64,000 nt of DNA from a phage. The notes below the pieces were generated by a model, which did no database searches, was not told the DNA's origin, and saw only the letters and a program-made list of their open reading frames with translations. Positions 2,942 through 64,000 of the stretch are shown here, piece after piece (the first letter of the stretch is position 1; each line of letters begins with the position of its first letter). The stretch is from the NCBI GenBank assembly GCA_029944565.1, contig GCA_029944565.1_4115.1, one strand, 5' to 3'. Both the position numbers and the translations under genes were made by a program.

Positions 2942-2950
2942 ATTTCATTC

Positions 2951-4127: not shown

Positions 4128-4675
4128 TTATCGTATCCATATAAAATATGATCTAGTGTACTTTGTACTTCTTCATGAAAGAATGAAGGGTAAACTTGTA
4201 TCAATTTATCTTTAAGTTCAAGGGAATGGCATAGTTCTAATGTTTTGTAACAATCCTCGTACTGTGCCAGATCATGTAATGTACTTAACTGAAAATGTTG
4301 TTCTTCGGAGTACAATAAATCATAAACCATATTATCGGATAAAAGATTAGATTTGATTGAAGGATCAAGTACTGTCTGGTGGTGACCAACCCAAAAGATA
4401 GCTTTTGAGTTAATGTTATTACAACCCCATCCTTTCCCCATCTTTTGGTGAATAGCAAATACACAGGAATCATACAAATTAATGCTCAGACGTTCTTCGT
4501 CTGCATGGATAGTTACACCATCAATAGATAGTGTATATTTGAAATCCATAGCCCCCTCACTTCGTGCACGAGAACTAAAGACCAGATATCGATGAATTAT
4601 GGTATTGATTTTATCTGTCCATCCATCAACACATTTGGATGCACATAATGTAAAAAGATCATGATTGTAGTTCAT
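4124..4675 (-). CDS. hypothetical protein, family A paralog
   Basis: motif EEQHFQLSTLH. Confidence 0.6.
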   Translation of the reverse strand: MNYNHDLFTLCASKCVDGWTDKINTIIHRYLVFSSRARSEGAMDFKYTLSIDGVTIHADEERLSINLYDSCVFAIHQKMGKGWGCNNINSKAIFWVGHHQTVLDPSIKSNLLSDNMVYDLLYSEEQHFQLSTLHDLAQYEDCYKTLELCHSLELKDKLIQVYPSFFHEEVQSTLDHILYGYDK

Positions 4676-4736
4676 AAAATTCTCCTTTAGGACAATGTAT
4701 CATACAAAAATACCAGAGTCAACCCCTGGTACGAAT

Positions 4737-5318
4737 TTAATCCATCATAAGTGGGATAATTGCCCATATCTTTTTCATAATCATATCTTCAGTAAAAACA
4801 AATGTTTTAGGAGCAGTATATGATATTGACACACCAAATGGAAGTTTGATTGCATCATCAATTATATTATGAATATCAAACCATGTTTTAACATAATCAT
4901 ACGGTGGAAGTTCATGAATTGTACTTAACTGAAAGTAATTCTCTTCACCAAAATCACTATATTCAATTTCACAAATTTTAGTGAATTGATGATTCCATTT
5001 AGATATAATACTATTTTTATTATTGTACATAGTAGTTCTATGCATAAAACCATTTTTGCTAGTATGATTTGATATTACGTTTTCTTCAATGTCAGTATCT
5101 ATTTTAAAATTCATATCAAAGTTGTAGTACGGACTTGACGATTCTTTGAATTTTAAATGTAAATTGCGATTGTTATTAATTTCAATTTCAATACAAAACA
5201 CATCTGAATCAAAACGATTAAACTTGTAATCGTTATCTTCCGGTAGATTCTGTATTTTTTTCATAATACTAAGCATAGGGTGTACTACACTTTTAATAAA
5301 ATCATTTGTTATTTTCAT
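4737..5318 (-). CDS. hypothetical protein, family A paralog
   Basis: motif EENYFQLSTIH. Confidence 0.6.
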   Translation of the reverse strand: MKITNDFIKSVVHPMLSIMKKIQNLPEDNDYKFNRFDSDVFCIEIEINNNRNLHLKFKESSSPYYNFDMNFKIDTDIEENVISNHTSKNGFMHRTTMYNNKNSIISKWNHQFTKICEIEYSDFGEENYFQLSTIHELPPYDYVKTWFDIHNIIDDAIKLPFGVSISYTAPKTFVFTEDMIMKKIWAIIPLMMD

Positions 5319-5811
5319 AGTATTCCTTTAGAACTTTATATGATTCAACAATACTATCTTGTGTATAATTTGAACTATATACAACAGCACTTGTTTTAGT
5401 TGACCATAGATATGACATAAAGGTTATAACACTACTACATGGACTTAATGTATTGTTTTGAAATTCAATTTCTTCAATGTTATCAGTACTGGTATAGATG
5501 AATTGGAAAGTACCCATTGATTTATTGGACAGCGATACTATAGTAGAATCCGTACCAGGACTATACATGAATGTCTCATTACTAATTGAACTATCATTAG
5601 TATATGATGGTTTGGGAATATAAATCAAACGCATGATATCGCGTTCAAGACCTGACTTATTACTTTCCACCAAAGAAATCATATCTATATTTGATATATG
5701 TTCAACACTGACATGGAACTTTTTGTCGAGAATCACATCTCCATGAGAATTTTTATATGAAGACAAAATCTCATACATCTCAACTAATTCGCGTGCATTT
5801 AATAAACTCAT
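5302..5811 (-). CDS. hypothetical protein, family A paralog
   Basis: motif EEIEFQNNTLS. Confidence 0.55.
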   Translation of the reverse strand: MSLLNARELVEMYEILSSYKNSHGDVILDKKFHVSVEHISNIDMISLVESNKSGLERDIMRLIYIPKPSYTNDSSISNETFMYSPGTDSTIVSLSNKSMGTFQFIYTSTDNIEEIEFQNNTLSPCSSVITFMSYLWSTKTSAVVYSSNYTQDSIVESYKVLKEYYENNK

Positions 5812-6236
5812 GTTTTGTCTCTTAATGAAAGAATATCCTTAGTATAAACTGAAACAGAAATATGATTATATTTCATCATTAATTTATACACATAAGAAGC
5901 TAGTACTAAATCGTAAATTAATTTAGTATTATACAGTACTTGGTATTGTAACGCAAGTGAATCAATATCATCTTTACTTTCAATATCCAGAAATGTACCG
6001 AAAAATGTAGTACCGTAGAGATGAAAAGTGGAATTAATGCAATCAATGCATTCATTGTCCAATAGAGTAGATGCTGATGCCCTCGGTGAATCCCAAATAG
6101 TCACTGCGTGTATGCCCTCAACGAACAAATCTATCCATATTTTGTGTCGTTGTCTTTTTTTTGTTTTATAATTTTCTGGATTTGAAAGTGTAGTTTCAAT
6201 TATATCCCATATGTACAAACAATCATCTCTTGTCAT
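5808..6236 (-). CDS. hypothetical protein (divergent family A?)
   Basis: 142-aa ORF, coupled to neighbours. Confidence 0.5.
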   Translation of the reverse strand: MTRDDCLYIWDIIETTLSNPENYKTKKRQRHKIWIDLFVEGIHAVTIWDSPRASASTLLDNECIDCINSTFHLYGTTFFGTFLDIESKDDIDSLALQYQVLYNTKLIYDLVLASYVYKLMMKYNHISVSVYTKDILSLRDKT

Positions 6237-6814
6237 TGTAGCACCTTATCCATTGCTGCATTTAATGCTTTTAAACGATCAACATTCAAAGTATTGAAGA
6301 TGTACGTTCCTAAAATGTGGAAATCGAATTGGTTCTTTTTGTATGTATGATAAATTAAACTACAAAAAACAACAGTACTAAGAACCTCTTCAGGTATAAC
6401 AGTGCTCATCTGGAACAGTTCTTCTTCAACTGTACTTGAATCTGGATTGATAGCTTTTAACACATACTCTTCATCACCGAATAGTACTTTAATATTATAT
6501 AAAACACCAATAGTACTAATATGGAATGGGTGATGTGAAAAACTTCCATCATCCTTAATTTGTATATCGGTTCTAATCTCACACTCTTCATTACTTTTAC
6601 TTTTATTTTTTACAATACAAATATTTCTGGCCCCAGAAATAGTAAGAATACCGTGGTCGTAATATTCATTTGACCAACATTTAGATGAAATTGATACATC
6701 ACGGATGAGATATTGTTTTTCAATTTCTTTCGCACTACCAACAATTGATAGCATTTTTTTACTGATATCATATAATAACTGATGGCGTTCTGTCATATAA
6801 CTATAAGCGTTCAT
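6233..6814 (-). CDS. hypothetical protein, family A paralog
   Basis: motif EEELFQMSTVI. Confidence 0.6.
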   Translation of the reverse strand: MNAYSYMTERHQLLYDISKKMLSIVGSAKEIEKQYLIRDVSISSKCWSNEYYDHGILTISGARNICIVKNKSKSNEECEIRTDIQIKDDGSFSHHPFHISTIGVLYNIKVLFGDEEYVLKAINPDSSTVEEELFQMSTVIPEEVLSTVVFCSLIYHTYKKNQFDFHILGTYIFNTLNVDRLKALNAAMDKVLQ

Positions 6815-7385
6815 ATTTTTCCTTAACAGATTCTATATTTTGAAGTAGTGTATTCAGAACATCAGTCTTGCAATTGATAAAATCATTGTACATAACTAGT
6901 TCACCACAATCAAGAATTTTTGCAGTATCGTAACAAAGCATTAAGTACTCGAATTCTTTGTAATTGTCCAACAAGGATTTCTGGAAAATGAATGCATCTC
7001 GAATATCTTCACTTTGGTCTAATTCTGGTGGAACATCCAACCCAATAAATCCATCATCTTCACTGAAATTAGATTCTACAATTTTATTCATTTTTTCATG
7101 TAATGCATTCGCAAATACCATATTAGAAGAAATAGAACCAATACGTTCACGATTTCTGGATGTGCGAATGTACATAGTAATCGTATCCCATGAACTTTTA
7201 ATTTTTTTAGAAAATTCATAAGTTTTATATACATCCAACTGAACTGATCCAAAACGATGTTTGGATTTGTTTTCAATTTTCAGTCGATAATCATCAAATT
7301 CAACAATTTCTGTAATGTCATGAATCTCTGAAAGTTCTGCAATGTCATGCATGAGTCTCAAAATTTTAGTTCTGATATGGTTCAT
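6801..7385 (-). CDS. hypothetical protein, family A paralog
   Basis: motif DAFIFQKSLLD. Confidence 0.55.
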   Translation of the reverse strand: MNHIRTKILRLMHDIAELSEIHDITEIVEFDDYRLKIENKSKHRFGSVQLDVYKTYEFSKKIKSSWDTITMYIRTSRNRERIGSISSNMVFANALHEKMNKIVESNFSEDDGFIGLDVPPELDQSEDIRDAFIFQKSLLDNYKEFEYLMLCYDTAKILDCGELVMYNDFINCKTDVLNTLLQNIESVKEKYERL

Positions 7386-7960
7386 TGTGCATCCTCGAAT
7401 TTAACAGGTACATGTTCATTAATGAAATTCTTAAGAGCCTGTACTAAATCCTCTAATTCTTTTGTACTGTATTTTAAAATAGTTTTAAAGTGAATCAAAT
7501 CTTTTCTTTCCATGATCTTTGGAATTTTATATGCTAACTCTAAACAGCGTACAGTACTGGCATCATACAAAAGGTTTGCGTTGAACATTAGAACATTGTA
7601 TTCATCAGATGAAATTTTATAATTATATGTATCAATCACTTCATGTGTGTATAAATTCTTATACACAATTTTATTCTCACTGAAGTTTGAGCAAACACAC
7701 AGATGATCGTTGTAAAATGAAGAACGATAATCTTGTTTACGTTGTACATCTGCTATGATTTGTAATACTGTATATTTTTCTTCAGAATCCAACTCAATGT
7801 TAGCATAACTGCTCGCAGTTTCAGATACAAGGATATTGATGTTATATTTCTCATTAACTTTAATGTACTGGCGTGAGCCAGTATCAGGAATGAACTTAAA
7901 ACAATGCTTCAGAAGTAATGTGACTTCTTTAATTAATTCAGTACTCATAGATTCCTCCAA
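7382..7960 (-). CDS. hypothetical protein (divergent family A?)
   Basis: 192-aa ORF; SD ggagg before ATG. Confidence 0.55.
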   Translation of the reverse strand: MEESMSTELIKEVTLLLKHCFKFIPDTGSRQYIKVNEKYNINILVSETASSYANIELDSEEKYTVLQIIADVQRKQDYRSSFYNDHLCVCSNFSENKIVYKNLYTHEVIDTYNYKISSDEYNVLMFNANLLYDASTVRCLELAYKIPKIMERKDLIHFKTILKYSTKELEDLVQALKNFINEHVPVKFEDAQ

Positions 7961-7975
7961 CTCTAGTTAAAATCA

Positions 7976-8003
7976 AGTATAACACACCTGAATGCTCTTG
8001 TAA
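7976..8003 (-). promoter_or_regulatory. sigma70-like promoter (TTACAA-16-TATACT)
   Basis: -35/-10 hexamers read on minus strand upstream of 7382..7960. Confidence 0.4.
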
Positions 8004-8008
8004 AGCCA

Positions 8009-8036
8009 TAAACACAAAAAGACCCATACGGGTCTT
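8009..8036 (-). terminator. rho-independent terminator
   Basis: hairpin agacccatacgggtct followed by U-run on minus strand, right after stop of 8036..8602. Confidence 0.6.
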
Positions 8037-8602
8037 TATTTTGGTAAAACACTGTCAATGTACGCTAGAACCTCATCTCGAAGGTACGTTCCATCTATAG
8101 TTAGGTAATAGTTCATGGGAATATCACTCCCAACCTTCTCATAAATTTTCATACATGATATCACATCTTCATCACAAATGGTACTCAATTGAAAAAGAAC
8201 TTCATCGGTTAACGGTACGATATCATGTTTAGATAGGGGATTTGTATTTTCATTCAACACAATATTAATCAAGTTAGGAGTATTCTTTGACGAAATATAA
8301 CGATGCTTACTACGAATTACCATTCTCGATAGTGAAATACTGGAACTCCATCTTGGATCAACATCTTCATATGATAACGATATTAACATCTCGTGAAAAT
8401 CTTGAAATTTCATTGACGCATAATATGTTTTATCCTCACCGTACATACCAAATGATTTAAATTCAATATCCCCCACTTTGTATGTATCGACATCATTATT
8501 TGAGAACTTTATTAAACTATTAATTAGTCTAATTAGAATATCATCTTTATCCATTCTTAAATAACTCCAAGTGCATGTCGTATAAATCTCTGAAGTCTTC
8601 AT
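8036..8602 (-). CDS. hypothetical protein, family A paralog
   Basis: motif DEVLFQLSTIC; start may be internal Met (~8554). Confidence 0.6.
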   Translation of the reverse strand: MKTSEIYTTCTWSYLRMDKDDILIRLINSLIKFSNNDVDTYKVGDIEFKSFGMYGEDKTYYASMKFQDFHEMLISLSYEDVDPRWSSSISLSRMVIRSKHRYISSKNTPNLINIVLNENTNPLSKHDIVPLTDEVLFQLSTICDEDVISCMKIYEKVGSDIPMNYYLTIDGTYLRDEVLAYIDSVLPK

Positions 8603-53886: not shown

Positions 53887-53975
53887 TTCTTTCTATATAG
53901 GAGTACTATTATTCAGTACTGCAACCATCCAGGGGAACTATCTTTCTATATAGGAGTACTATGATTCAGTACTGA
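53887..53975. repeat. two ~33-bp direct repeats (tctttctatataggagtactatNattcagtactg)
   Basis: copies at ~53889-53920 and ~53942-53975. Confidence 0.6.
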
Positions 53976-54136
53976 ATCAATCCACCAAATCATCCCGATA
54001 CCCCGTAAAACGGCCTCAGACGCATTCTAACGCATTAATACACCTAAGCTATACATTTGCACCATTCCAATCATTCCAGGGCTTTACGGGCCGTTTAAAC
54101 GCGTTAAATTATTTTCAATTATTTTGTTTTTAGCTA

Positions 54137-54164
54137 TTGACTCAGTACTGAAAAAGCGTATAAT
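54137..54164 (+). promoter_or_regulatory. plus-strand promoter (TTGACT-16-TATAAT)
   Basis: hexamers on plus strand; followed by conserved-core transcript. Confidence 0.55.
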
Positions 54165-54351
54165 TACTATATAGACGCGAGAAAGCGGATACCCCAGGGG
54201 GTGGGAAGATCCGTCCAAAATTCAAGATATAAAAAAAGGATAGACTCCCGCACCCTAGCAGGTTAACGCACTTTCTCAGTACTGAATTATAGTACCATAG
54301 TCCGGCCCAGGATGGCAAGCAAATTAATTAAAACTTTTTTCATCCAGGGTA

Positions 54352-54380
54352 TTGCTTTATTTTTCCAGTACTGCTATAAT
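54352..54380 (+). promoter_or_regulatory. plus-strand promoter (TTGCTT-17-TATAAT)
   Basis: followed by GTC-gagaaa-GAC hairpin and CCCACCGGGTGCATAGTTGTATCTA core. Confidence 0.5.
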
Positions 54381-54477
54381 ATTTTTATCAAGTCGAGAAA
54401 GACTCTAGCCCACCGGGTGCATAGTTGTATCTAAAATTCAGTACTAGATTATTTTTTAAAATTATTCATCCAAGCGG

Positions 54478-54506
54478 TTGACATACCAGGCGAAAACGGG
54501 GATAAT
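54478..54506 (+). promoter_or_regulatory. plus-strand promoter (TTGACA-17-GATAAT)
   Basis: hexamers on plus strand, no ORF downstream. Confidence 0.5.
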
Positions 54507-54599
54507 GATTCCAGATTCAGAAAAATCTAACTCCAGATACTGCGGGGAAACCATCCCCACGCGGTAGGGGAACTATTGGAAAAAATAAAATAAAAATTT

Positions 54600-54770
54600 T
54601 GATTTAGCCGTCTATACATCCAGACGTGTAACCATCTAGCCGTTTAGCCGTCCAAACGTCTAGCAGTACAGCCATCTAGAAATCTAGCCATCCAGCCGCC
54701 TAGAGGGATAGCCATCTTTACTTCCAGCCATCTGGAGGTCTAGACATCTCTACGTCTAAATTTAACCTAG
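54600..54770. repeat. iteron-like cluster of short GC-rich repeats (CCATCTAG / CGTCTA / TCTAGC)
   Basis: at least 10 degenerate units with CTAG cores in 170 bp, GC-rich against AT-rich background. Confidence 0.6.
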
Positions 54771-54914
54771 GGTTACTACACCCAAAATCCGTCAGTACTA
54801 TACCATAGATCTATCTTTTGAAAGGGAGTATTCAGTACTGCCATCATAGCCCTCACTATGTTACCCTAGGAGGATGAAGACTATCATGTAGTACTGAATA
54901 CTGTTAGGGGGAAT

Positions 54915-54934
54915 CCACCAGCACAAGCTGGTGG
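54915..54934. other. back-to-back Chi octamers CCACCAGC-acaa-GCTGGTGG
   Basis: perfect 8-bp inverted pair, Chi in both orientations. Confidence 0.55.
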
Positions 54935-55570
54935 CATAATGCTTTAGATTAAAATCAGTACTGACACCATTCTGTTAATATCAGTACTGTTATTACGATT
55001 TTCATATGAGGTTCAAAAAGATGTACCACCACAGGAGGAACTATCTTTTCTGTACTGTCTCACGACAGGAGGTAGAGTAAATGAATTGTTCGCAGCAACT
55101 CATCACCCTATGTAGAACATTATACAGTACTGAATCATAATGTCAATAACTTTCTTTCACCATTCAGTACTGATATTCTTGAGAACTACCCGACTACAAA
55201 CATCATTATATCCCACAAATCATAAACGTCCCAACGTAAATTTCAACTTTCGAAGATCCAACTTTTATTTCATAGGTACTCCAAAATTTTTAGGATCGAG
55301 ATTTAGAATGGAGTACTAACCAACTTTTTGCTGGAGCCTCAAGGGGTAATGGAATTTTACCCCGAAGGGTAAAAGGGTAATTGTAATTAAGGTGAAAGTA
55401 ATAATTCAGTACTAATCATTGCGTGATTACTTTTGATTACATTTGATGTAATTTGCAAAATGGAAAAGGAGCTTGGAAACTACAAAGTACGGCAGACTTC
55501 CTCTGCCTACTTAGTGGCATATCAGTACTGCTACGTTCTTGATTAAACGTGAACATTCCTGTACTCTAGT

Positions 55571-55610
55571 ACTCACTACTGTTCACTACTGTTCACTACT
55601 GATCACTACA
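55571..55610. repeat. four tandem 10-bp repeats (CTCACTACT/GTTCACTACT/GTTCACTACT/GATCACTACA)
   Basis: helical-pitch spacing, followed by ATGATTAC-type repeats at 55619-55670. Confidence 0.65.
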
Positions 55611-55721
55611 GTGATTATAAATGATTACTTAAATGTTTATATATGATTACTTATGACTACCTATGATTACGGGGTTTAGCCTGGGGAGAATCCTAGTGAT
55701 CGCATTTGTCCAGGCTGAATT

Positions 55722-55756
55722 TTAACATATGCAACATATGTTAAAGCCTGTATAAT
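55722..55756 (+). promoter_or_regulatory. perfect palindrome TTAACATATG-caa-CATATGTTAA next to -10 TATAAT
   Basis: 10-bp inverted arms at 55722-55744; TATAAT at 55751-55756 preceded by TG. Confidence 0.45.
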
Positions 55757-55786
55757 GCTTCCACTACGGAGCTTCCCCTAGCTATA

Positions 55787-55978
55787 TTACTTCCTATATA
55801 TAAGCATTAAGATATAGTAGTACTGATTATACTGTACATTCTCTTTAATATTATAAGGGTCTATAGCAATCTCGGTACATCTGTTAAATGCATATCTATT
55901 AAATGCCAGTGGAATTATAGATCTAATCCATACTTGTTCATTTTCTTTTAGTTTACTTATATAGAAGTTTTTATACAT
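55787..55978 (-). CDS. small hypothetical protein, family C paralog
   Basis: ends LMLIYRK; tandem array. Confidence 0.45.
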   Translation of the reverse strand: MYKNFYISKLKENEQVWIRSIIPLAFNRYAFNRCTEIAIDPYNIKENVQYNQYYYILMLIYRK

Positions 55979-55993
55979 AGTATTCTCTATTAA

Positions 55994-56176
55994 TTAATAT
56001 GGTAGTACTAGTGTTAGTACTGAGCACAATTGTTCTTTGTAGTTCTTAGGGTATATAGAATCTTTTATGCACTCATTGAAGTGCCATAGGTATAATCTTG
56101 GGTCGCATTCTTTATATATTCTTACGGGGACGAATGTTAGTTTTCGTATATAGAATTCTTTATGTTCTTTATTCAT
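55994..56176 (-). CDS. small hypothetical protein, family C paralog
   Basis: MNKEHKEFY start. Confidence 0.45.
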   Translation of the reverse strand: MNKEHKEFYIRKLTFVPVRIYKECDPRLYLWHFNECIKDSIYPKNYKEQLCSVLTLVLPY

Positions 56177-56177
56177 A

Positions 56178-56366
56178 TTAGTACCTGAATATAAGTAGGA
56201 TTATGTTATAGTACTGGTTAGTACTGCAATGATTCTCTATACATCGATTAACAGTTATGGAATAGCTATATCTGGCGTAAGCATTATCCAGCGGGATTTT
56301 ACATTGAGCACTTAGAGAAAGTACAGTAGGTAGTGTATTCAAATAGAAGTCTTTGTAATTATTCAT
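56178..56366 (-). CDS. small hypothetical protein, family C paralog
   Basis: ends ILLIFRY. Confidence 0.45.
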   Translation of the reverse strand: MNNYKDFYLNTLPTVLSLSAQCKIPLDNAYARYSYSITVNRCIENHCSTNQYYNIILLIFRY

Positions 56367-56568
56367 ACAGGAATAGTATACCTATGATACCTGAGTACAG
56401 GTTAGTACTGTTACCATCTTCGTTTGCGTTTAAAGTCATTTGAATACAATTATTGTAGCATACTCTGCCGAAAAATGTATTAGTACTTAAAGGTGGAGTA
56501 GTCCTTAGAAACATTTGTTCTGAGGGGCTTATGTATTTGGAGTAGAATTCTTTATGTTCTTTATTCAT
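56359..56568 (-). CDS. small hypothetical protein, family C paralog
   Basis: MNKEHKEFY start. Confidence 0.45.
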   Translation of the reverse strand: MNKEHKEFYSKYISPSEQMFLRTTPPLSTNTFFGRVCYNNCIQMTLNANEDGNSTNLYSGIIGILFLYE

Positions 56569-56573
56569 ATTAG

Positions 56574-56759
56574 TTAGTGTCTGTATATAAGTAATAGTAA
56601 GAATACGTACTGCACATCTTCATCTTTAGTATTGAGTACTGTACGTATTGCGTCATTAAACAAGAATATAGTACTTGGGTCATGAGAATTTAAAGGGGTT
56701 CTGGGTACGGCATGTTTGTAGTTCCCTTTAACAAATTGTGTGTAGTATTCTCTATGCAT
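56574..56759 (-). CDS. small hypothetical protein, family C paralog
   Basis: MHREYY start, ends LLLIYRH. Confidence 0.45.
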   Translation of the reverse strand: MHREYYTQFVKGNYKHAVPRTPLNSHDPSTIFLFNDAIRTVLNTKDEDVQYVFLLLLIYRH

Positions 56760-56760
56760 A

Positions 56761-56946
56761 TTAGTACCTATATATTAGGGCGAGAATGTAGTACAATTCA
56801 TATGGAATGTAATTTGGGGTGATCGCACACTGTGTATGGTAAATGAATTGTTCGGTATTTTTCTTATCCTTGATATCTATTGGGATTTGTGGTATAAGCA
56901 TTTGGGAGTTTAGATCGAGATGGCTTAAGTAGAATTCTTTATGCAT
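56761..56946 (-). CDS. small hypothetical protein, family C paralog
   Basis: MHKEFY start, ends LALIYRY. Confidence 0.45.
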   Translation of the reverse strand: MHKEFYLSHLDLNSQMLIPQIPIDIKDKKNTEQFIYHTQCAITPNYIPYELYYILALIYRY

Positions 56947-56955
56947 ATTGTTCTC

Positions 56956-57144
56956 TTAGAATACGAAAGCTAGGTACAGGGTATGATACAGTACTTGATT
57001 ATAGTTGTAATAATTTATCACGCATTTAGTGCACGTAATGAAGTAGTCTTTTTTGTAGTTTATTTCTATACCGCTAGGTTCATCTTCTAACAGATTACCT
57101 TGAAGGTGCGGAGGTAAATCTTTTATGTAGTATTCTTTATGCAT
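56956..57144 (-). CDS. small hypothetical protein, family C paralog
   Basis: start at internal MHKEYYIKDL of track ORF. Confidence 0.45.
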   Translation of the reverse strand: MHKEYYIKDLPPHLQGNLLEDEPSGIEINYKKDYFITCTKCVINYYNYNQVLYHTLYLAFVF

Positions 57145-57145
57145 G

Positions 57146-57328
57146 TTAGTACCTGAATATAAGTAGGATAGTGTTATATAGCTGGTCATAACTACTACTA
57201 TTTTCTATACTTCGTTCTATGCAGTTATTGAATCCCAGTACTGCCAAATCGTTATCCATAGGGACTTTATATCTGGCGTAGTGTTCAAAAATGCTGGGGA
57301 GAAATTGTGTGTAGTATTCTTTGTGCAT
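57146..57328 (-). CDS. small hypothetical protein, family C paralog
   Basis: MHKEYY start, ends ILLIFRY. Confidence 0.45.
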   Translation of the reverse strand: MHKEYYTQFLPSIFEHYARYKVPMDNDLAVLGFNNCIERSIENSSSYDQLYNTILLIFRY

Positions 57329-57329
57329 A

Positions 57330-57521
57330 TTAGTACCTATATATTAGTAAAAGGATGTGATACAGTACTCGATTATAGTCGTCAATATATATCGAGGATT
57401 TAGTGCACTGAATGAAGTAGTCTTTTTCGTAGTTTTTTTCTATACCCAATGCAACGTTTGGTACAAGGTGTTGGAGATACATTGGGAGTTTCTCTATGTA
57501 GTATTCTTTGTGGTTATTCAT
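57330..57521 (-). CDS. small hypothetical protein, family C paralog
   Basis: MNNHKEYY start, ends LLLIYRY. Confidence 0.45.
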   Translation of the reverse strand: MNNHKEYYIEKLPMYLQHLVPNVALGIEKNYEKDYFIQCTKSSIYIDDYNRVLYHILLLIYRY

Positions 57522-57529
57522 ATTATGTG

Positions 57530-57709
57530 TTATTTCGTGAAAACAAGGGTTAGTACTGCATAGTACAAGTCATACGTATCTTTAGGGTTAATAGCACCTT
57601 TAATACATTCTTTTATTAATTCATTATAGATAATTTTAGTACTGAAGGTATTGGATGTTACTATATCGGAATTAAGGTACGAGAGGTAGAATTCTTTATG
57701 TTTGTGCAT
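57530..57709 (-). CDS. small hypothetical protein, family C paralog (59 aa)
   Basis: MHKHKEFY start; below ORF-track cutoff. Confidence 0.4.
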   Translation of the reverse strand: MHKHKEFYLSYLNSDIVTSNTFSTKIIYNELIKECIKGAINPKDTYDLYYAVLTLVFTK

Positions 57710-57710
57710 A

Positions 57711-57893
57711 TTAGTACCTGAATGTTAGCATTACTACGTAGTACAGCATATATGGATTATCATCGTATATGAGCGTGTACTTAGTACATTGTTGGAACAT
57801 TATTTTTGCGTGATCTTTTATTCCTATTGGTTCTTTTGGTATATGGTGCTGGAGATGCATTGGGAGATGTTCCCTGTAGTATTCTTTATACAT
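57711..57893 (-). CDS. small hypothetical protein, family C paralog
   Basis: start at internal MYKEYYREHL, ends VMLTFRY. Confidence 0.45.
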   Translation of the reverse strand: MYKEYYREHLPMHLQHHIPKEPIGIKDHAKIMFQQCTKYTLIYDDNPYMLYYVVMLTFRY

Positions 57894-58557
57894 AGTTTGT
57901 AATATACGTAATGAGGTGATGCATTTTCTTATTAGTACTGATAAGTTCCTGTACATGTTTTGTCAGATTGTACGCGTTTTTATAGAGTACTGGATTATCG
58001 ATTACAGTACTGTACATGAATAGTTCTTCTTCCTGTAGTTCTTTGTGTTCTAGTTCTTTGAGGAATTGTAGTACTGTATCAGTTTCTTCTGTACGTTGTG
58101 CTTGCCAGAAGTGCATATTCTCGTGTACTTTTTCTGCATCAGTAGAGTATATGCCACCCATTTGGAATTGTGCTGTATTGACATCGTGGGAGGTGTTACA
58201 ATTCCCGAAGAAGTATGTATTCCCGAAGTATAGCATTAAAGTGCACGGGGTATTATCCAACTGCATATTGATGATGAAGGATGCGTTCTTTAGTACCTTT
58301 GTGCTCGTATTAGTACTCAATACTTTTAAATCAGTATTATAGATATTCATATAATGAACAGCTATATTATTTTTCTTCATGTACAATTCAAGGTTCTTTG
58401 ATACGTTAACTCCATTTGTACTGGATTTTTCCTTTTTATTTCGTTTCTTTAGTACATTCGGGTGATACGTATATGCAGATGTAACTGATTCTGCCTGAAT
58501 ACTATTGAGGTACTTAAAGTGCTTAAGGTATTGTTTGCTGTGTGCATTAAGTTTCAT
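57886..58557 (-). CDS. hypothetical protein with family A module, embedded in family C array
   Basis: 223 aa; C-terminal LQEEELFMYSTVIDNPVLY. Confidence 0.6.
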   Translation of the reverse strand: MKLNAHSKQYLKHFKYLNSIQAESVTSAYTYHPNVLKKRNKKEKSSTNGVNVSKNLELYMKKNNIAVHYMNIYNTDLKVLSTNTSTKVLKNASFIINMQLDNTPCTLMLYFGNTYFFGNCNTSHDVNTAQFQMGGIYSTDAEKVHENMHFWQAQRTEETDTVLQFLKELEHKELQEEELFMYSTVIDNPVLYKNAYNLTKHVQELISTNKKMHHLITYITNYV

Positions 58558-58567
58558 TTGGTTTCCT

Positions 58568-58747
58568 TTATATAGATGCCAGGGCGAGGATTTCCCTGTA
58601 GGGATTATCTTGTGTTAGTACAGCATAAATGCAGTTATTGAGATTAATATTTTTAGTACTTTTTGTTCCTAGTTTGTAGTACTTCACGAAGGTGTCGTAC
58701 ATGAAACGGTCTTTTATGGTTATACGTTCTCTATAGAATTGTTGCAT
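58568..58747 (-). CDS. small hypothetical protein, family C-like (59 aa)
   Basis: MQQFYRERI start; below ORF-track cutoff. Confidence 0.35.
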   Translation of the reverse strand: MQQFYRERITIKDRFMYDTFVKYYKLGTKSTKNINLNNCIYAVLTQDNPYREILALASI

Positions 58748-58755
58748 AGTATTCC

Positions 58756-58938
58756 TTATATAGAGATTAGTTTCATTACTTCTCTGTATGTGTACTTTTC
58801 GTTTTGTGCATCTCTTGTGACGACATATAGGAAGGTGTGTTTATCTTTTTTGTTCCCGCAATTGTAGAAAATATTGAACTTATTGAAGTTGAATCTTTCG
58901 GCGTGTTGTAGTTTAGTTAAATAGAATTCTATGTTCAT
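58756..58938 (-). CDS. small hypothetical protein, family C-like
   Basis: 60-aa ORF ending MKLISI. Confidence 0.4.
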   Translation of the reverse strand: MNIEFYLTKLQHAERFNFNKFNIFYNCGNKKDKHTFLYVVTRDAQNEKYTYREVMKLISI

Positions 58939-58946
58939 TTTCTTCC

Positions 58947-59132
58947 TTACATTTCAATAAGTTTCAGTACTGCTCGGTACGTGTACTTAGTTGTCAGTGC
59001 TTCTTTAATAGAAATACAGAAGTAATGTTGTTTGTCTCTTATACTGCCGCGTTTGTAGTACCACACATGGGAGTTGTGACTGTACTTGTCTCTGTCGGAT
59101 AGTTGTTGGTAGTAGTAGCTTATATGATTCAT
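58947..59132 (-). CDS. small hypothetical protein, family C-like
   Basis: 61-aa ORF ending LKLIEM. Confidence 0.4.
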   Translation of the reverse strand: MNHISYYYQQLSDRDKYSHNSHVWYYKRGSIRDKQHYFCISIKEALTTKYTYRAVLKLIEM

Positions 59133-59341
59133 TATAATGTAATTAGCCTTACTATATTAAAGTACTCGGTCCCTGGTGTACCTTGTAGTATATTACGCAC
59201 GACATTTTTTTGGTGCTGGATGATTGCTGAAGGTGCGGTTCTTTTTAGTTTTTTTAAAGTACTGAATTCTTGTTTAAGTATGAACTGTACATCTTTAGGG
59301 AGAATATCTATGTAGTACTGATGAATGTTTGTAGTTTTCAT
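59132..59341 (-). CDS. small hypothetical protein, family C paralog
   Basis: QYYIDILP start region, ends VRLITL. Confidence 0.45.
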   Translation of the reverse strand: MKTTNIHQYYIDILPKDVQFILKQEFSTLKKLKRTAPSAIIQHQKNVVRNILQGTPGTEYFNIVRLITL

Positions 59342-59351
59342 ATAGCACCTT

Positions 59352-59546
59352 TTAGAACTTAAAGATGAGGTTCAGGATAGAGCGGTACTTAGTTTCAGGG
59401 AACTGATGTTCTATTGCATAACGTGTCGCCATCCTGAAATCGTAATTGTAATATAGATTATCCTTTCTCATAGGTGGTGCTAAAGAGAATGATAGCTGGT
59501 CTTGCTTGTGTAGTTTACTACCATAGAAATCTTTATGATTATTCAT
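59352..59546 (-). CDS. small hypothetical protein, family C paralog
   Basis: MNNHKDFY start, ends LNLIFKF. Confidence 0.45.
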   Translation of the reverse strand: MNNHKDFYGSKLHKQDQLSFSLAPPMRKDNLYYNYDFRMATRYAIEHQFPETKYRSILNLIFKF

Positions 59547-59748
59547 AGAAGTAGATTAGTCCTATTAAACCTGAGTACATAATATTTTTGTTATTGCATT
59601 CGATTGCTTCTAGAGTACTACGTATACAATTATTAAAGCAATCTCTACCGAAGTGAGTATTGGTACTTACAGGTGATACACTCCTTAGAAACAATTGTTC
59701 TTCGTTGCTAAGGTATTTGGTGTAGAATTCTTTATGTTCAGTATTCAT
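59539..59748 (-). CDS. small hypothetical protein, family C paralog
   Basis: MNTEHKEFY start. Confidence 0.45.
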   Translation of the reverse strand: MNTEHKEFYTKYLSNEEQLFLRSVSPVSTNTHFGRDCFNNCIRSTLEAIECNNKNIMYSGLIGLIYFYE

Positions 59749-59749
59749 A

Positions 59750-59953
59750 TTAGTACTCGATTAAAAGGGCAAGGATATAATAGTATTGCATACTTTCTGC
59801 CCCTTGTAAAGCATTTCTTATGATATTACTCCTGTACGAGTTCAGGAGTTTAGGACAACGTTTGTAGTGTATAAAAGTATTTTGTGTATACAGTAGGCTT
59901 TCTCGTAGACCTTTTGTTGGTAGTGCATCGATGTAGTACTGTTCAATGTTCAT
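59750..59953 (-). CDS. small hypothetical protein, family C paralog
   Basis: MNIEQYYIDALP start, ends LALLIEY. Confidence 0.45.
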   Translation of the reverse strand: MNIEQYYIDALPTKGLRESLLYTQNTFIHYKRCPKLLNSYRSNIIRNALQGAESMQYYYILALLIEY

Positions 59954-60177
59954 ATAGATAGCAGTACTAAGATTTTTGATAATTGTTTATTGCTATCCCC
60001 GCAGATGTTGCTGTGTAAAATACTCACAATGAGGGTATCAATTGCATTGTTCATCATAAGGGTGCATCCTGGACTATTATAATTTTTTAGCTCAATTAGC
60101 CACGAACTATCCGAGAGAAATTCCCCGTACTCTAGTTCATTTAGAGTATTGAGGTAGTACTTAAGAGTATTTGTCAT
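59950..60177 (-). CDS. small hypothetical protein (first gene of family C operon)
   Basis: 75-aa ORF with SD aaggag. Confidence 0.45.
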   Translation of the reverse strand: MTNTLKYYLNTLNELEYGEFLSDSSWLIELKNYNSPGCTLMMNNAIDTLIVSILHSNICGDSNKQLSKILVLLSI

Positions 60178-60202
60178 GTGTAGTTCTCCTTATATTCCTT
60201 CT

Positions 60203-60231
60203 ATAGTACACCAGTACTGAAAGGATGTCAA
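60203..60231 (-). promoter_or_regulatory. promoter of family C array (TTGACA-17-TACTAT)
   Basis: hexamers on minus strand upstream of 59950..60177. Confidence 0.55.
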
Positions 60232-60249
60232 GGGTTTTCTTTATGGGGT

Positions 60250-60279
60250 AAATATGATATAATGAATAAGGAGGGAAAT
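60250..60279 (+). promoter_or_regulatory. -10-only promoter-like element and RBS for first RCC1-like gene
   Basis: TGATATAAT then aaggaggg; box aaatatagtataatgaataaggagg repeats before each family D gene. Confidence 0.4.
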
Positions 60280-61428
60280 ATGTTACCTTTTGTTAGAATG
60301 ATTAAGTACGGGAATATTGCCCCTGGTGATGATGGACGTTTTAAAATATATTCCAGTGATTCCATGTATCTTCATGATACTTATACTGATAAGTTGTATG
60401 CATCTTCTGCGACGAATTGGGGTACTGGAACAGGTGTTTCGTCGAGTAAATTTATTCTTAGTGCGGAGAATGTTAAACGAGTTCTATTGGAAAATAACAG
60501 TAGTGATTGTCAATTGTATGAAGAGAAAGGTACTGGAAAAGTTTTTATCACTGGTAACACGAAGGCATTCACTGGTGTAACTGATAGAAAAACTTTGTGG
60601 ACGGAATGTACTACGTGGATAACATCAGGTGGTATTAATGTTTCTGATATAAAATACATGAGTAGTTTTAATGATATGAAGGTAAATTTGATAACAAACG
60701 ATGGTACATTGTATTGTTGTGGAGCTAACAATAACTCTAACCTATCATCATTTGGTGATGGTACAAACATTAATTCTTTTAACACATTCAAAAGGGTAGA
60801 TACTATAACTTCGGTTAAAAAGGCAGTTGGTAACATATACCTAAAAGAAGATAATACTTTATGGGGTTGTGGTTTTAACTATTACTATCAGTTAGGTACA
60901 GGTAATCAAACTTCTATTACTGGGGTGACGATGATTGCTTCGGATGTTATAGATTTTGATGTAAGTTATCAGAGTACATTTTTTATTAAATCAGATAATA
61001 ATTTGTACGCATGTGGTAAACAGTTCGGTGCACAATACGGGAACGAATTTGGCACAGGTGGTACTTCTTCATCTACAGATATACAATACAAAACTCCAAC
61101 ATTATTGAGTCCAGGAGTTTATAGTTTATATACTTGTGTTGGTAACATGGCGTCACATATAGTTAAAGGTGATGAAGTACTTTATGCATCTGGAAGCAAC
61201 TCGTCTGGTCAATTAGGTGTTGGTAATAATATTAATCAGTACTCTTATACCCCTTCATATACTTCGTTTAATACTTCGTGTAATTTGGTACGCACCCCAT
61301 CTGGTTCACTTATACTTACTGACACTTCGAAGTTATATTATTGTGGGGCTTCAATTGTAGTAATGGGAGGTATTGCTGGACAGAACGTTCTTAATTATAC
61401 CGAAGTCGATATGTCATTTTTGCAGTGA
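60280..61428 (+). CDS. RCC1-like repeat (beta-propeller) protein, family D copy 1
   Basis: repeated Gx(N)xxGQLGxG units (LWGCGFNYYYQLGTGN, LYASGSNSSGQLGVGN); start MLPFVRM after SD. Confidence 0.55.
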   Translation: MLPFVRMIKYGNIAPGDDGRFKIYSSDSMYLHDTYTDKLYASSATNWGTGTGVSSSKFILSAENVKRVLLENNSSDCQLYEEKGTGKVFITGNTKAFTGVTDRKTLWTECTTWITSGGINVSDIKYMSSFNDMKVNLITNDGTLYCCGANNNSNLSSFGDGTNINSFNTFKRVDTITSVKKAVGNIYLKEDNTLWGCGFNYYYQLGTGNQTSITGVTMIASDVIDFDVSYQSTFFIKSDNNLYACGKQFGAQYGNEFGTGGTSSSTDIQYKTPTLLSPGVYSLYTCVGNMASHIVKGDEVLYASGSNSSGQLGVGNNINQYSYTPSYTSFNTSCNLVRTPSGSLILTDTSKLYYCGASIVVMGGIAGQNVLNYTEVDMSFLQ

Positions 61429-61435
61429 TTTGATA

Positions 61436-61466
61436 TGCCAGTACTTGATGCTGGCTTTTCTTTTTT
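61436..61466 (+). terminator. rho-independent terminator
   Basis: hairpin gccag-N9-ctggc followed by T-run. Confidence 0.6.
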
Positions 61467-61501
61467 GTATTAAATATAGTATAATGAATAAGGAGGGATT
61501 T

Positions 61502-62611
61502 ATGTTACCTTTTGGAAGAATGGTTAAGTACGGAAATATTGTACCTGGTCCTAAAAATATAATTAAAGTTGGTGCTTCTACACAAGGTCAATTCTTATTG
61601 ACTGATTCACATGATTTATATTACATAGGTAGAAATCAAGGTGGTGAATCTGGAAATGGTAATACCAACACGGTATCTTCATGGATATTAGTAAGTGCAG
61701 ATGTTTCTAATTTTTTCGTGGGTGATCGTACACTTGTTATTATTAAAAATGATAATACGATATGGACATCAGGTCAAACGTACTGGTTCTCATCTTCTAC
61801 AACTACTTCTTACAGTACTGTATTAGTTGAAAGGACTAGTTGGTTTACCACGGCTATACCAGTAAGTGAGATTGCTAATATTGTATGTACAAATGGTTTA
61901 ATATTTGTACTTAGCACTAATTCAGTACTCTATGGTGCAGGAGATAATGGATATCGTGGTTCTTTGGGTATTGGTTCATCATCAATTTATACATTAACTC
62001 AATGTGCTACGAACGTTCGTAAAGTAATGACCAATGCGAATGATAGTATGTATCTTACATTAGATAATAAGCTATATAGTTCTGGATGGAATAGTAGTGG
62101 GCAGCATGGTACGGGGAACCAAACACAAATTAACACTTGGGGATTGCGTAGTTCTGGTGTAATCGATGCAGCCATTGGTGGTAATGCATTAAATTACTAT
62201 AATGGTACATCATATTTCGTATGTGGTCAAACTCCAAACTTTCTTAGTTCAGGTACGACTACATTCCGTGCAGTTCCTGTAAGTACTTTGCCTAATAGTT
62301 CTCCGTTGTTTATGACGAATTCACCTGCATTAAATACTGCTACACAAATGGTAATTACTAGTACATATCAAAAGGGTGTTGGGGCGAACCGTGGTTTGGG
62401 ATTAAACAATTCTCAAACTGGTGCTATATATAGTGCTACCAATTTACAATTACCCGTTGAAGTTAGTGAGATTAGGGATGTTCTTTTTAGTGATGGTTTG
62501 ACATCGATATTAACCAAAAATGGAGATGTGTATAGTACTGGATCGTATTACGCCATTCCAGGTGCAATCGAGGATGTTGCAGTCTTTACTAAAATTGATT
62601 TACCAAAATAA
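61502..62611 (+). CDS. RCC1-like repeat protein, family D copy 2
   Basis: motifs LYGAGDNGYRGSLGIG and LYSSGWNSSGQHGTGN; start MLPFGRM. Confidence 0.55.
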   Translation: MLPFGRMVKYGNIVPGPKNIIKVGASTQGQFLLTDSHDLYYIGRNQGGESGNGNTNTVSSWILVSADVSNFFVGDRTLVIIKNDNTIWTSGQTYWFSSSTTTSYSTVLVERTSWFTTAIPVSEIANIVCTNGLIFVLSTNSVLYGAGDNGYRGSLGIGSSSIYTLTQCATNVRKVMTNANDSMYLTLDNKLYSSGWNSSGQHGTGNQTQINTWGLRSSGVIDAAIGGNALNYYNGTSYFVCGQTPNFLSSGTTTFRAVPVSTLPNSSPLFMTNSPALNTATQMVITSTYQKGVGANRGLGLNNSQTGAIYSATNLQLPVEVSEIRDVLFSDGLTSILTKNGDVYSTGSYYAIPGAIEDVAVFTKIDLPK

Positions 62612-62615
62612 CATA

Positions 62616-62647
62616 ATGCCAGTGCTTGATACTGGCATTCTTATTTG
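62616..62647 (+). terminator. rho-independent terminator
   Basis: hairpin atgccagt-gcttgat-actggcat followed by T-rich tract. Confidence 0.6.
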
Positions 62648-62681
62648 TATTAAATATAGTATAATGAATAAGGAGGGAAAT

Positions 62682-63830
62682 ATGTTACCTTTTGGAAGAA
62701 TGATTAAGTACGGAAATATTGCACCTAACCCGCCTGATCCTAGTACACGTTTTAAAATATATTCCGGCGGTAGTGCTATGTATTTTCATGATACATACAC
62801 GAAAAATTTGTATGCATCAGCGGCAGTCAGTCAGGGTACTGGAACTGGTGTAGCGTCGAGTAAATTTATTCTTAGTGCGACTAATGTTAAAAGAGTCCTT
62901 TTGGAAAATAACAGTAGTGGTTGTCAATTATATGAAGAAGACGGTACTGGAAAAGTGTTTATAACTGGAAGTCCGAGTGCGTTTTCTGGTTCAGGTGCAT
63001 ATTATAACACGTGGACAGATTGTACTTCATGGATAACATCCAGTGGTATTAATGTTTCTGATATAAAATACATGAGTAGTTACAGTGATCTTAAAGTGAA
63101 TTTGATAACAACTGATGGTACTTTATATTGCTGCGGAACAAACAGCACATCAACCAGATCATCTTTTGGTAATGGCACAAATACAAATTCATTTAACGCC
63201 TTTGTTAAGATTGAAGCCATATCATCGGTAAAAAAAGCTGTTGGTAACATATACCTAAAAGAAGATAATACATTATGGGGTTGTGGTATTAACACTTACT
63301 ATCAGTTAGGGACAGGCAATCAAACTGCTAGTACTGGTGTTGTTAGAATACAGACTAATGTTATAGATGTCGATGTAAGTTATCAGAGTACATTTTTTAT
63401 TAAAGATGATAATAAATTGTACGCTTGTGGTACACAATATGGAGTATCATATGGTAATGAATTCGGCACAGGCACAACACTTAAGCAATACACAACACCA
63501 ACTTTATTGAATTCGGATGTACAGAATATATACTGTTGTGTTGGTAATATGGCTTCACATATTCTCAGATTTGGGACTACAATATTTGCATCTGGGGTTA
63601 ACACTGGTGGGCAATTGGGTGTTGGTAATCTTACAAATCAGTTCTATTATACCAAGTCTTATGAAAATTTTAATAGTTCTTACAGTTTAGTACTGAATAA
63701 CATCGGTAGTTTGATTCTCACAGATGAAGGGAAGTTATTTTATACTGGTTTTTCCAATCTAGTAATGGGTGGAAGTTCTGGGCAGTACACTACAAGATAT
63801 ACCGAAGTTGATATGTCATTTATACAATGA
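62682..63830 (+). CDS. RCC1-like repeat protein, family D copy 3
   Basis: close paralog of copy 1 (LWGCGINTYYQLGTGN, IFASGVNTGGQLGVGN). Confidence 0.55.
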   Translation: MLPFGRMIKYGNIAPNPPDPSTRFKIYSGGSAMYFHDTYTKNLYASAAVSQGTGTGVASSKFILSATNVKRVLLENNSSGCQLYEEDGTGKVFITGSPSAFSGSGAYYNTWTDCTSWITSSGINVSDIKYMSSYSDLKVNLITTDGTLYCCGTNSTSTRSSFGNGTNTNSFNAFVKIEAISSVKKAVGNIYLKEDNTLWGCGINTYYQLGTGNQTASTGVVRIQTNVIDVDVSYQSTFFIKDDNKLYACGTQYGVSYGNEFGTGTTLKQYTTPTLLNSDVQNIYCCVGNMASHILRFGTTIFASGVNTGGQLGVGNLTNQFYYTKSYENFNSSYSLVLNNIGSLILTDEGKLFYTGFSNLVMGGSSGQYTTRYTEVDMSFIQ

Positions 63831-63833
63831 ATT

Positions 63834-63866
63834 AAAGCCAGTACTTGATACTGGCTTTTATTTTTT
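63834..63866 (+). terminator. rho-independent terminator
   Basis: hairpin aaagccagta-cttga-tactggcttt followed by T-run. Confidence 0.65.
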
Positions 63867-63900
63867 GATTAAATATAGTATAATGAATAAAGGAGGAATT

Positions 63901-64000
63901 ATGTTACCTTTTACAAGAATGGTTAAGTACGGGAATAAAGTCATTCCATATGTTCCCAATTTTACTAAATTAGTCACCCCAGCAGTTGGTTATTCATTTA
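63901..64000 (+). CDS. RCC1-like repeat protein, family D copy 4 (3' truncated by window)
   Basis: same promoter/RBS box and N-terminus MLPFTRMVKYGN. Confidence 0.5.
   Translation, partial: MLPFTRMVKYGNKVIPYVPNFTKLVTPAVGYSF

Follow-up and report, generated by a model that had tools for sequence, protein, structure and literature searches.

Tandem arrays of genes for RCC1-like proteins have been described in the Rak2-like jumbo phages, including 121Q (121Q_234-248), PBECO4, phAPEC6 (gp001-010) and GAP32 (gp001), and their products belong to phrog_4219. The paper on phage CBB lists 121Q_234-248 and the RCC1-like copies of PBECO4, and the phAPEC6 paper counts eleven RCC1-like proteins (PMC7247149). 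The RaK2, UE-S1 and Sharanji papers contain no promoter or RCC1 information. Here we analysed such an array at positions 60250-64000 of a stretch of phage DNA of 64,000 nucleotides (contig GCA_029944565.1_4115.1), which is referred to below as the window. The array consists of three complete genes, g1 to g3, and the first 33 codons of a fourth, g4. It has the same genes, tandem arrangement and control cassette as the Rak2-like phages named above, and it likewise adjoins the early and terminal-repeat region; compared with Asteriusvirus and the other Rak2-like relatives, only the combination and order of the cassettes differ. Because these genes have already been annotated and discussed in papers, the array as a gene family is published and not new.

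The nucleotide sequence assigns the window to an Asteriusvirus-type jumbo coliphage (121Q, PBECO4, phAPEC6, JP4), a jumbo myophage of Escherichia coli. A megablast search with positions 60200-64000 matched 37 genomes of jumbo coliphages and Salmonella phages of the 121Q/PBECO4/phAPEC6/JP4 type, in which the matched genes are labelled "regulator of chromosome condensation" or "DNA condensation protein". In JP4 at least 13 such genes follow in tandem after the same divergent junction, and a junction cassette of 119 nucleotides is present in 36 genomes, mostly in 8-16 copies per genome. The product of g1 is 98.7% identical to that of a JP4 gene, g2 is 100% identical to its counterpart in phage UB and 99.5% to that in phAPEC6, and g3 shares 99.2% identity with a 121Q gene that has another place in the array of that phage. 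The g1 protein also has an identical counterpart, deposited as an E. coli hypothetical protein on a contig of 349,686 bp, which is a complete lytic jumbo-phage genome within a bacterial assembly.

The explanation that we favour, with a probability of roughly 0.6, is that the array encodes late-expressed minor virion proteins of low copy number, which are recruited through a shared N-terminal tag and whose cassettes are reshuffled by recombination at the junctions between the genes. Each gene would form a separate late transcription unit, read by a phage gp55-like sigma factor from a T4-type promoter that lacks a -35 element and has its TAAATA core 25-26 nucleotides before the ATG. Translation would begin from a near-perfect Shine-Dalgarno sequence, and an intrinsic terminator would close the unit. 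The tag would bring the low-copy proteins into the virion, and the domain behind it, a β-propeller, would be a variable ligand-binding module, most likely exposed and binding to the host or the environment. The near-identical junctions of about 120 nucleotides, comprising terminator, promoter, Shine-Dalgarno sequence and tag codons, would serve as crossover sites at which cassettes are gained, lost and reshuffled between strains.

A previous, sequence-only reading of this stretch had noted a repeated box, genes and terminators without a recognisable -35 element, and these observations were confirmed as a whole; its interpretation of the array is partly supported. The 25-nucleotide box AAATATAGTATAATGAATAAGGAGG occurs in four copies on the plus strand, one before each gene, at 60250, 61472, 62652 and 63871, with 2, 0, 0 and 3 mismatches, respectively; none is expected by chance (100 shuffles of the sequence). 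All four cassettes have the same layout, in which TAAATA is followed by three nucleotides (TAG), TATAAT, GAATA, AAGGAGG, a spacer of five nucleotides and the ATG. The AAGGAGG is a near-perfect Shine-Dalgarno sequence, as expected for the strong ribosome-binding site that had been proposed. The absence of a -35 element also held, since no hexamer lying 15-19 bp from TATAAT agrees with TTGACA in more than three of six positions in any of the four copies. A consensus promoter scan for sigma-70 returned none of the cassette TATAAT sequences, the -10 being perfect and the -35 absent. One sigma-70-like match in a cassette, CTGGCA-17-TATAGT, was rejected as a general promoter because its -35 part is a terminator arm that matches in three of six positions in the other copies. 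No Rfam family matched positions 59500-64000 at E values up to 0.1.

Of the two -10-like hexamers in the box, TAAATA rather than TATAAT is probably the one that acts as the promoter element. The TAAATA core is present in all four cassettes, at the fixed distance from the ATG given above, and together with its complement TATTTA it is depleted more strongly than any other hexamer of the window, with 25 copies against an expected 78. In the early region (60 kb) the sense strand shows a stronger depletion, with 8 copies observed and 74 expected, whereas TATAAT is not avoided in the same count (92 versus 68). Within the array, four of the five sense-strand copies of TAAATA lie in the cassettes. The remaining copy, at 62331-62336 inside g2, may have arisen by chance or may act as a late promoter within the gene, and the copies on the early-region sense strand are at 719, 1013, 2026, 13213, 20390, 24693, 24803 and 34943. 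The late motif of phage T4, TATAAATA, does not occur on the early-region sense strand. This avoidance of TAAATA fits selection against stray late promoters. It offers an easy means of marking late promoters across the genomes of this group of phages, and we found no earlier description of it.

The same element is found upstream of structural genes in the genus. In the structural-gene region of phAPEC6, nnTAAATA precedes the ATG of eight genes, all located after an intergenic gap. Seven have unknown or structural functions, and the eighth encodes the EndoVII packaging nuclease. Nine of the 20 plus-strand copies of TAAATA in 49 kb of phAPEC6 lie 16-58 nucleotides, mostly 30-36, before an annotated plus-strand start. 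The phAPEC6 protein gp237c carries the annotation of a late-transcription sigma factor, and in the CBB paper late promoters of the form ATAAATA are predicted for this group of phages. Across the homologous intergenic regions of Munch, GAP32 and BF the invariant element is (G/T)TAAATA. Phages of the genus Eneladusvirus and phage Kaldavass carry the same genes as tight operons with gaps of 10 nucleotides; therefore, one promoter and one terminator per gene is a trait of the Asteriusvirus and Munch type.

The sequence-only reading had named TATAAT as the -10 box, and it may be asked whether this hexamer is the true promoter, either as a -10 element that works independently of a -35 or with the assistance of an UP element. 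It would then be read by the host sigma-70 or by a phage sigma-70-like factor, which Rak2-like phages do encode, and the genes would be early or middle genes. All four copies indeed match TATAAT perfectly, the upstream sequence includes a T-rich tract, and the array adjoins the early-gene region. A TGn extension of the -10 is present in the first copy, but it is missing in the other three, and all four copies lack a -35. The hexamer is kept only in Asteriusvirus and Munch-type phages and not in the GAP32 or BF cassettes, which do keep TAAATA. The position of the Shine-Dalgarno sequence also separates the two possibilities: transcription starting about 6 nucleotides past TAAATA would give a leader of about 20 nucleotides that contains it, whereas a start 7 nucleotides downstream of TATAAT would place it at the extreme 5' end of the mRNA. 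With the detection of the products in virions added to this, TATAAT is an unlikely candidate for the promoter of these genes.

The proposed TAAATA promoter resembles the late promoters of T4 (TATAAATA, used with gp55, gp33 and gp45) in being a -10-only element without a -35, with a TAAATA core at a fixed distance upstream of the gene. Further similarities are that the genus encodes a gp55-like sigma factor and that the motif is avoided elsewhere in the genome. The cassette sequence differs from that of T4, being ATTAAATA or GGTAAATA instead of TATAAATA, and homologues of gp33 and gp45 are reported to be missing in CBB (CBB paper). The late mode of transcription that had been suspected from the missing -35 is probably right, but for a different reason, namely a T4-like TAAATA core that also lies upstream of the structural genes of the genus.

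A hairpin of the form GCCAGTAC-loop-GTACTGGC followed by a T-rich tail is located 3-8 nucleotides past each of the three stop codons, in agreement with the terminator that had been noted after each gene. The stems are 7-11 bp long, and each 55-nucleotide segment ending 30 nucleotides before the ATG folds with -10 to -17 kcal/mol. The extension of the stem shows G-U wobbles as well as compensatory changes between the copies, and the wobbles can form only in the plus-strand RNA. The hairpins after the three complete genes are predicted to be intrinsic (Rho-independent) terminators. The first cassette has no upstream terminator, being the first of the array. The terminator stems are built from a GTAC-type word that is over-represented in the whole window: GTAC is 3.1-fold in excess, AGTACT occurs 259 times versus 19 expected, and CAGTAC/GTACTG about 150 times versus 13. 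This excess is also seen in phAPEC6 and GAP32, and it affects coding and non-coding DNA without a longer consensus.

The true start of each gene is the ATG downstream of the Shine-Dalgarno sequence (Table 1). Another ATG lies within the box (ATGAATAAGGAGG), at 60262, 61484 and 62664, and leads programs that call open reading frames (ORFs) to over-extend the genes (MNKEGN-MLPF... and longer), which gave ORFs of 388, 412 and 436 residues in the list made for this stretch. Because this ATG is in frame in only some of the cassettes, and out of frame in those with an extra A (GAATAAAGGAGG), the upstream start (MNKEGN...) was rejected. The protein size of about 380-410 residues stated in the sequence-only reading fits the over-extended ORFs; from the true starts the proteins have 382, 369 and 382 residues. 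The reading was also right that the RCC1-like genes stand in tandem, but of the four that it counted only three are complete, the fourth, starting at 63901, being cut by the end of the window. The JP4 orthologue of g4 has 395 residues. The same over-extension is present in the protein database that was used for the JP4 proteomics.

The three complete proteins score above the Pfam cut-offs for RCC1 repeats. For the RCC1_2 model (PF13540, cut-off 22 bits) the scores are 42.8 bits for g1, 32.8 for g2 and 43.7 for g3, and for the RCC1 model (PF00415, cut-off 21.7) they are 37.7 for g1 and 25.4 for g3. The full-domain model WD40_RLD (PF25390) gives 59.6-78.1 bits, far under its cut-off of 150. The array proteins are therefore divergent RCC1-like members, which are caught by the repeat models and by their fold and not by the full-domain model. 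They match phrog_4219 end to end, from residue 1 to about 380, with E values of 1e-112, 3e-109 and 2e-103. The repeated Gx(N)xxGQLGxG units that had been described are RCC1 repeats, but no more than two or three of the seven blades keep the canonical GQLGxG signature.

The predicted structures agree with this assignment. AlphaFold models of g1 and g2 have pLDDT values of 92.4 and 81.9 and pTM values of 0.88 and 0.83, respectively, and according to these models each complete ORF is a single seven-bladed RCC1-like propeller behind an N-terminal peptide of about 16 residues. A Foldseek search with the g1 model found the RCC1-like domains of UVR8 and HERC2 with TM scores of 0.67-0.74 and those of RPGR and RCC1 with 0.58-0.66, all at a probability of 1.0; the match to UVR8 (Protein Data Bank (PDB) code 4dnu) has an E value of 5e-19 and a TM score of 0.73 across 386 columns. 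Both the repeat models and the fold thus bear out the RCC1 propeller that had been predicted. Among viral models, the matches of g1 include homologues from Rak2-like phages and T7-type tail-fibre proteins of Pseudomonas phages. In the tail-fibre proteins of phages Littlefix and PollyC, the RCC1-like propeller that matches the g1 model (TMq 0.59) is fused to a large fibre N-terminal domain, whereas the array propeller stands alone behind its 16-residue tag. Sequence comparison with the PDB revealed no phage RCC1-like protein of known structure.

The phage proteins share with the eukaryotic RCC1-like domains (UVR8, HERC2, RPGR and RCC1) a propeller that has seven blades, about 370 residues and the signatures of RCC1 repeats. 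They differ in that the identity is 14-18%, that the phage offers no Ran or chromatin context, and that an extra N-terminal tag is present. Eukaryotic RCC1 is an exchange factor for Ran, and Ran is absent from bacteria, including E. coli, and from the phages of E. coli. The RCC1 name, which the phage proteins have inherited from that factor, carries no functional information for them. The identity of g1 to RCC1 is 14-17% and is limited to the repeat scaffold. The proteins are not basic, their isoelectric points (pI) being 5.3-6.7, and the same tag and locus also carry Kelch and lectin-fold domains. The database name would imply a role in condensing or organising the DNA of the phage or of the host, and the annotation is joined in this by speculation in the phAPEC6 paper (PMC7247149); in view of the features just given, such a role is extremely unlikely.

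The N-terminal peptide of about 16 residues is the only part conserved between paralogues that are otherwise 26% identical. Thus g1 and g2 are 26% identical overall, and yet they agree in 14 of the first 16 residues; g3 is 68% identical to g1. The core of the tag comprises roughly 12 residues with the consensus M[LI]PFx[RIQK]xxxY[GA]N and heads all of the paralogues. It is poorly ordered in the models, residues 1-16 of g1 having pLDDT values below 50 and residues 4-13 of g2 being of low confidence. All 27 paralogues examined from the window, JP4 and phAPEC6 start with MLPFxR[MI]x[KN][YF][GA]N, including four that lack the promoter-terminator cassette. The tag is also found beyond the genus, as all 39 array genes from eight phages (the window phage, JP4, GAP32, BF, fHe-Yen9-04, XbC2, Munch and Kaldavass) start with M[LI]PFx[RIQK][ILM]xxYGN, and it is present in seven of the seven genes CBB_548-554, which adjoin the terminal repeat. 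A degenerate DNA pattern for the tag retrieved about 60 tagged ORFs from IMG/VR, almost all on jumbo contigs of 348-378 kb. Pattern matches on small or giant-virus contigs were rejected as chance matches, the ORFs being short or unrelated. A presence of the tag outside the Rak2-like jumbo phages was not demonstrable in this search, since the phage collection contained no useful relatives of two of the IMG/VR contigs.

RCC1-like propellers are only one of the types of body that follow the tag. The others include Kelch propellers, Laminin_G_3 or ConA-like domains, the phrog_6011 family ("virion structural protein"), a Gly-rich domain and families without a Pfam match. Non-RCC1 tagged proteins of the Kelch, Laminin_G_3-like and phrog_6011 types are encoded at 2661-7929 in CBB, 523-1155 in GAP32 and 622-1287 in the Serratia phage BF, where they occupy the equivalent locus beside the terminal repeat.

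The conserved N terminus could also have no function of its own and be carried along by gene conversion of the junction that contains the promoter and the Shine-Dalgarno sequence. Within Asteriusvirus the synonymous sites of tag codons 2-12 are nearly invariant (TTA in 27 of 27, CCT in 27 of 27 and AGA in 26 of 27 genes), as such a process would produce. The four paralogues without a terminator-promoter cassette keep the tag nevertheless, and other genera keep the peptide in tight operons without cassettes. Because those genera encode the same residues with different codons (CCA or CCC, ATA), the tag peptide itself appears to be under selection. It is moreover common to unrelated domain families, and we consider a passively converted N terminus very unlikely.

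Many of the tagged proteins, Kelch and ConA-like ones of related jumbo phages included, have been detected in the virions of several phages. In phAPEC6 the tagged RCC1-like proteins gp003, 005, 006, 007, 009 and 010 were identified with 1-4 peptides each (PMC7247149), and in CBB the proteins CBB_548, 549, 551, 552 and 553 were found with 9.5-50.7% coverage (PMC5259590). The RCC1-like GAP_001 of GAP32 was identified as a structural protein by mass spectrometry (MS) (CBB paper), and the tagged GAP32_002 is annotated as "virion structural protein". Three tagged proteins were detected in JP4, with single peptides in the two rows examined (PMC12648861 supplement). Outside this lineage, three tandem phrog_4219 proteins are present in the virions of the Vequintavirinae phage W70 with 141-233 spectra (PMC11370258). 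These proteins, W70_237-239, resemble the array in belonging to the same PHROG, having a mass of about 40 kDa and being encoded in tandem, and differ in coming from another phage lineage with a genome of about 140 kb.

Several points weigh against the favoured reading. The MS support is thin, given the 1-4 peptides in phAPEC6 and the single peptides in JP4, and the data cover no exact orthologue of g1, g2 or g3, the g2 orthologue being unannotated in phAPEC6. Part of the tag conservation within a genome points, from the codon usage, to concerted evolution of the junction. The cassette sequence, ATTAAATA or GGTAAATA, matches six of the eight positions of T4 TATAAATA, and its distance of 25-26 nucleotides to the ATG is shorter than the 30-36 nucleotides of the structural genes. 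TATAAT does not vary within the genus and may be a genuine -10. Finally, we infer the start site and timing of the cassettes from their sequence, and the position of the proteins in the particle and the binding role of the propellers are proposals. With regard to phAPEC6 (MK817115), intact tagged paralogues at 2434-3540, 6063-7253 and 7325-8059 are unannotated, including the 99.5% identical g2 orthologue, and were therefore undetectable in the phAPEC6 virion proteomics.

As an alternative, the tagged proteins could be internal head proteins, belonging to an inner body or ejected, with a tag that acts like the capsid targeting sequence of T4 and an array that serves as a counter-defence arsenal. 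The T4 internal proteins are diverse and share only this short N-terminal sequence (PMC3012670), phAPEC6 has an inner body for which its authors proposed the RCC1-like proteins as candidates (PMC7247149), and the low abundance of the proteins in virions and the fast turnover of the cassettes point in the same direction. The T4 internal-protein locus is similar to the array in this respect, being a rapidly changing set of dissimilar virion-associated proteins with a common N-terminal peptide. The array tag is unrelated in sequence to the capsid targeting sequence, and this reading is weakened by the lack of a conserved Glu in the tag, or of any recognisable cleavage site for a prohead protease such as ends a capsid targeting sequence and allows its removal on maturation; residue 9 is K, E, D, S, T, Q, N or G. 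The T4 cargo also consists of small basic proteins, whereas the tagged cargo here consists of propellers and lectin folds, and the array proteins are acidic to neutral. Domains of the RCC1, Kelch and ConA/LamG types, with their relatives in bacteria, are characteristic of extracellular binding modules. An internal location is for these reasons doubtful, and yet it is the alternative to which we give the most weight.

By analogy, an external binding role is favoured over an internal one for the array proteins. It is suggested by the types of domain, by the secretion and anchoring domains of the bacterial relatives (T9SS, dockerin or Listeria-Bacteroides repeat domains), and by the RCC1-like propellers of tail fibres. 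The proposal in the sequence-only reading that the proteins could be receptor-binding or host-interaction factors is a guess.

More generally, we tentatively suggest, at slightly less than even odds, that the tag may be a general virion-incorporation signal of the Rak2-like jumbo phages, acting by docking or encapsidation, with one common site in the particle taking a large and rapidly shuffled set of stand-alone binding modules, namely RCC1 and Kelch propellers and ConA/LamG lectin folds. If this is true, the tag would correspond in function to the capsid targeting sequence and internal proteins of T4, or belong to a plug-in adhesin system. Such a loading signal would explain the diversification of particle-associated binding proteins in these phages and offer a route to display or package foreign proteins in jumbo phages. 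The disordered shared tag gives a concrete handle on the role of the 10-16 stand-alone propellers of such a jumbo phage. A search of the PDB sequences with the tag profile gave nothing meaningful (best E value 0.65), and no description of an "MLPF" tag in a phage context was found in the searchable literature.

The arrays of related phages differ in the way that would be expected from recombination at the junctions. The order in the window is g1-g2-g3-g4, JP4 has g1-g2-g4, and 121Q has three other cassettes between the orthologues of g2 and g3. In phAPEC6 the g2 orthologue is present, and for g1 and g3 there is only a relative with 51-52% identity. According to the fEgEco12 paper, the array genes belong to those that diverge most between strains of a single species. 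The coordinates of the genes, cassettes and predicted terminators are collected in Table 1.

Table 1. Features of the RCC1-like array, in positions of the window
Feature	Position	Strand	Description
Cassette 1 control region	60249..60279	+	TAAATA 60249-60254; TGATATAAT extended -10-like 60255-60263; AAGGAGG 60268-60274; 5-nt spacer
g1	60280..61428	+	382-residue RCC1-like seven-bladed propeller (predicted), phrog_4219; disordered N-terminal tag MLPFVRMIKYGNIAPG
g1 predicted intrinsic terminator	61437..61467	+	hairpin GCCAGTACTTGATGCTGGC then TTTTCTTTTTTG; hairpin span 61437-61455
Cassette 2 control region	61471..61501	+	TAAATA 61471-61476; TATAAT 61480-61485; AAGGAGG 61490-61496
g2	61502..62611	+	369-residue RCC1-like propeller (predicted)
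g2 predicted intrinsic terminator	62615..62647	+	AATGCCAGTGCTTGATACTGGCATT then CTTATTTG; hairpin span 62615-62639
Cassette 3 control region	62651..62681	+	TAAATA 62651-62656; TATAAT 62660-62665; AAGGAGG 62670-62676
g3	62682..63830	+	382-residue RCC1-like propeller (predicted)
g3 predicted intrinsic terminator	63834..63866	+	AAAGCCAGTACTTGATACTGGCTTT then TATTTTTTG; hairpin span 63834-63858
Cassette 4 control region	63870..63900	+	TAAATA 63870-63875; TATAAT 63879-63884; AAGGAGG 63890-63896; one A more than the other boxes
g4	63901..64000	+	only the first 33 codons (MLPFTRMVKYGNKVIP...), truncated at the window end

On its upstream side the RCC1-like array adjoins a second array, at 55787-60177 on the minus strand, which contains at least 13 (about 20 by eye) tandem paralogous genes arranged head to tail. 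Their products have 60-81 residues, begin with M..KE[FY]Y and end with L[IL][IFY]RY. A region poor in ORFs lies at about 53900 to 55800, with 10-nucleotide tandem repeats at 55424-55670. A perfect TTGACA-16-TATAAT is present there on the minus strand, from 55146 to 55119, and the GC skew changes sign near 56 kb. When mapped to JP4, the ORF-poor region lies near the boundary of the direct terminal repeat of roughly 21 kb reported for the genus, and the JP4 record holds a tandem duplication of 20.1 kb that starts at about the matching position.

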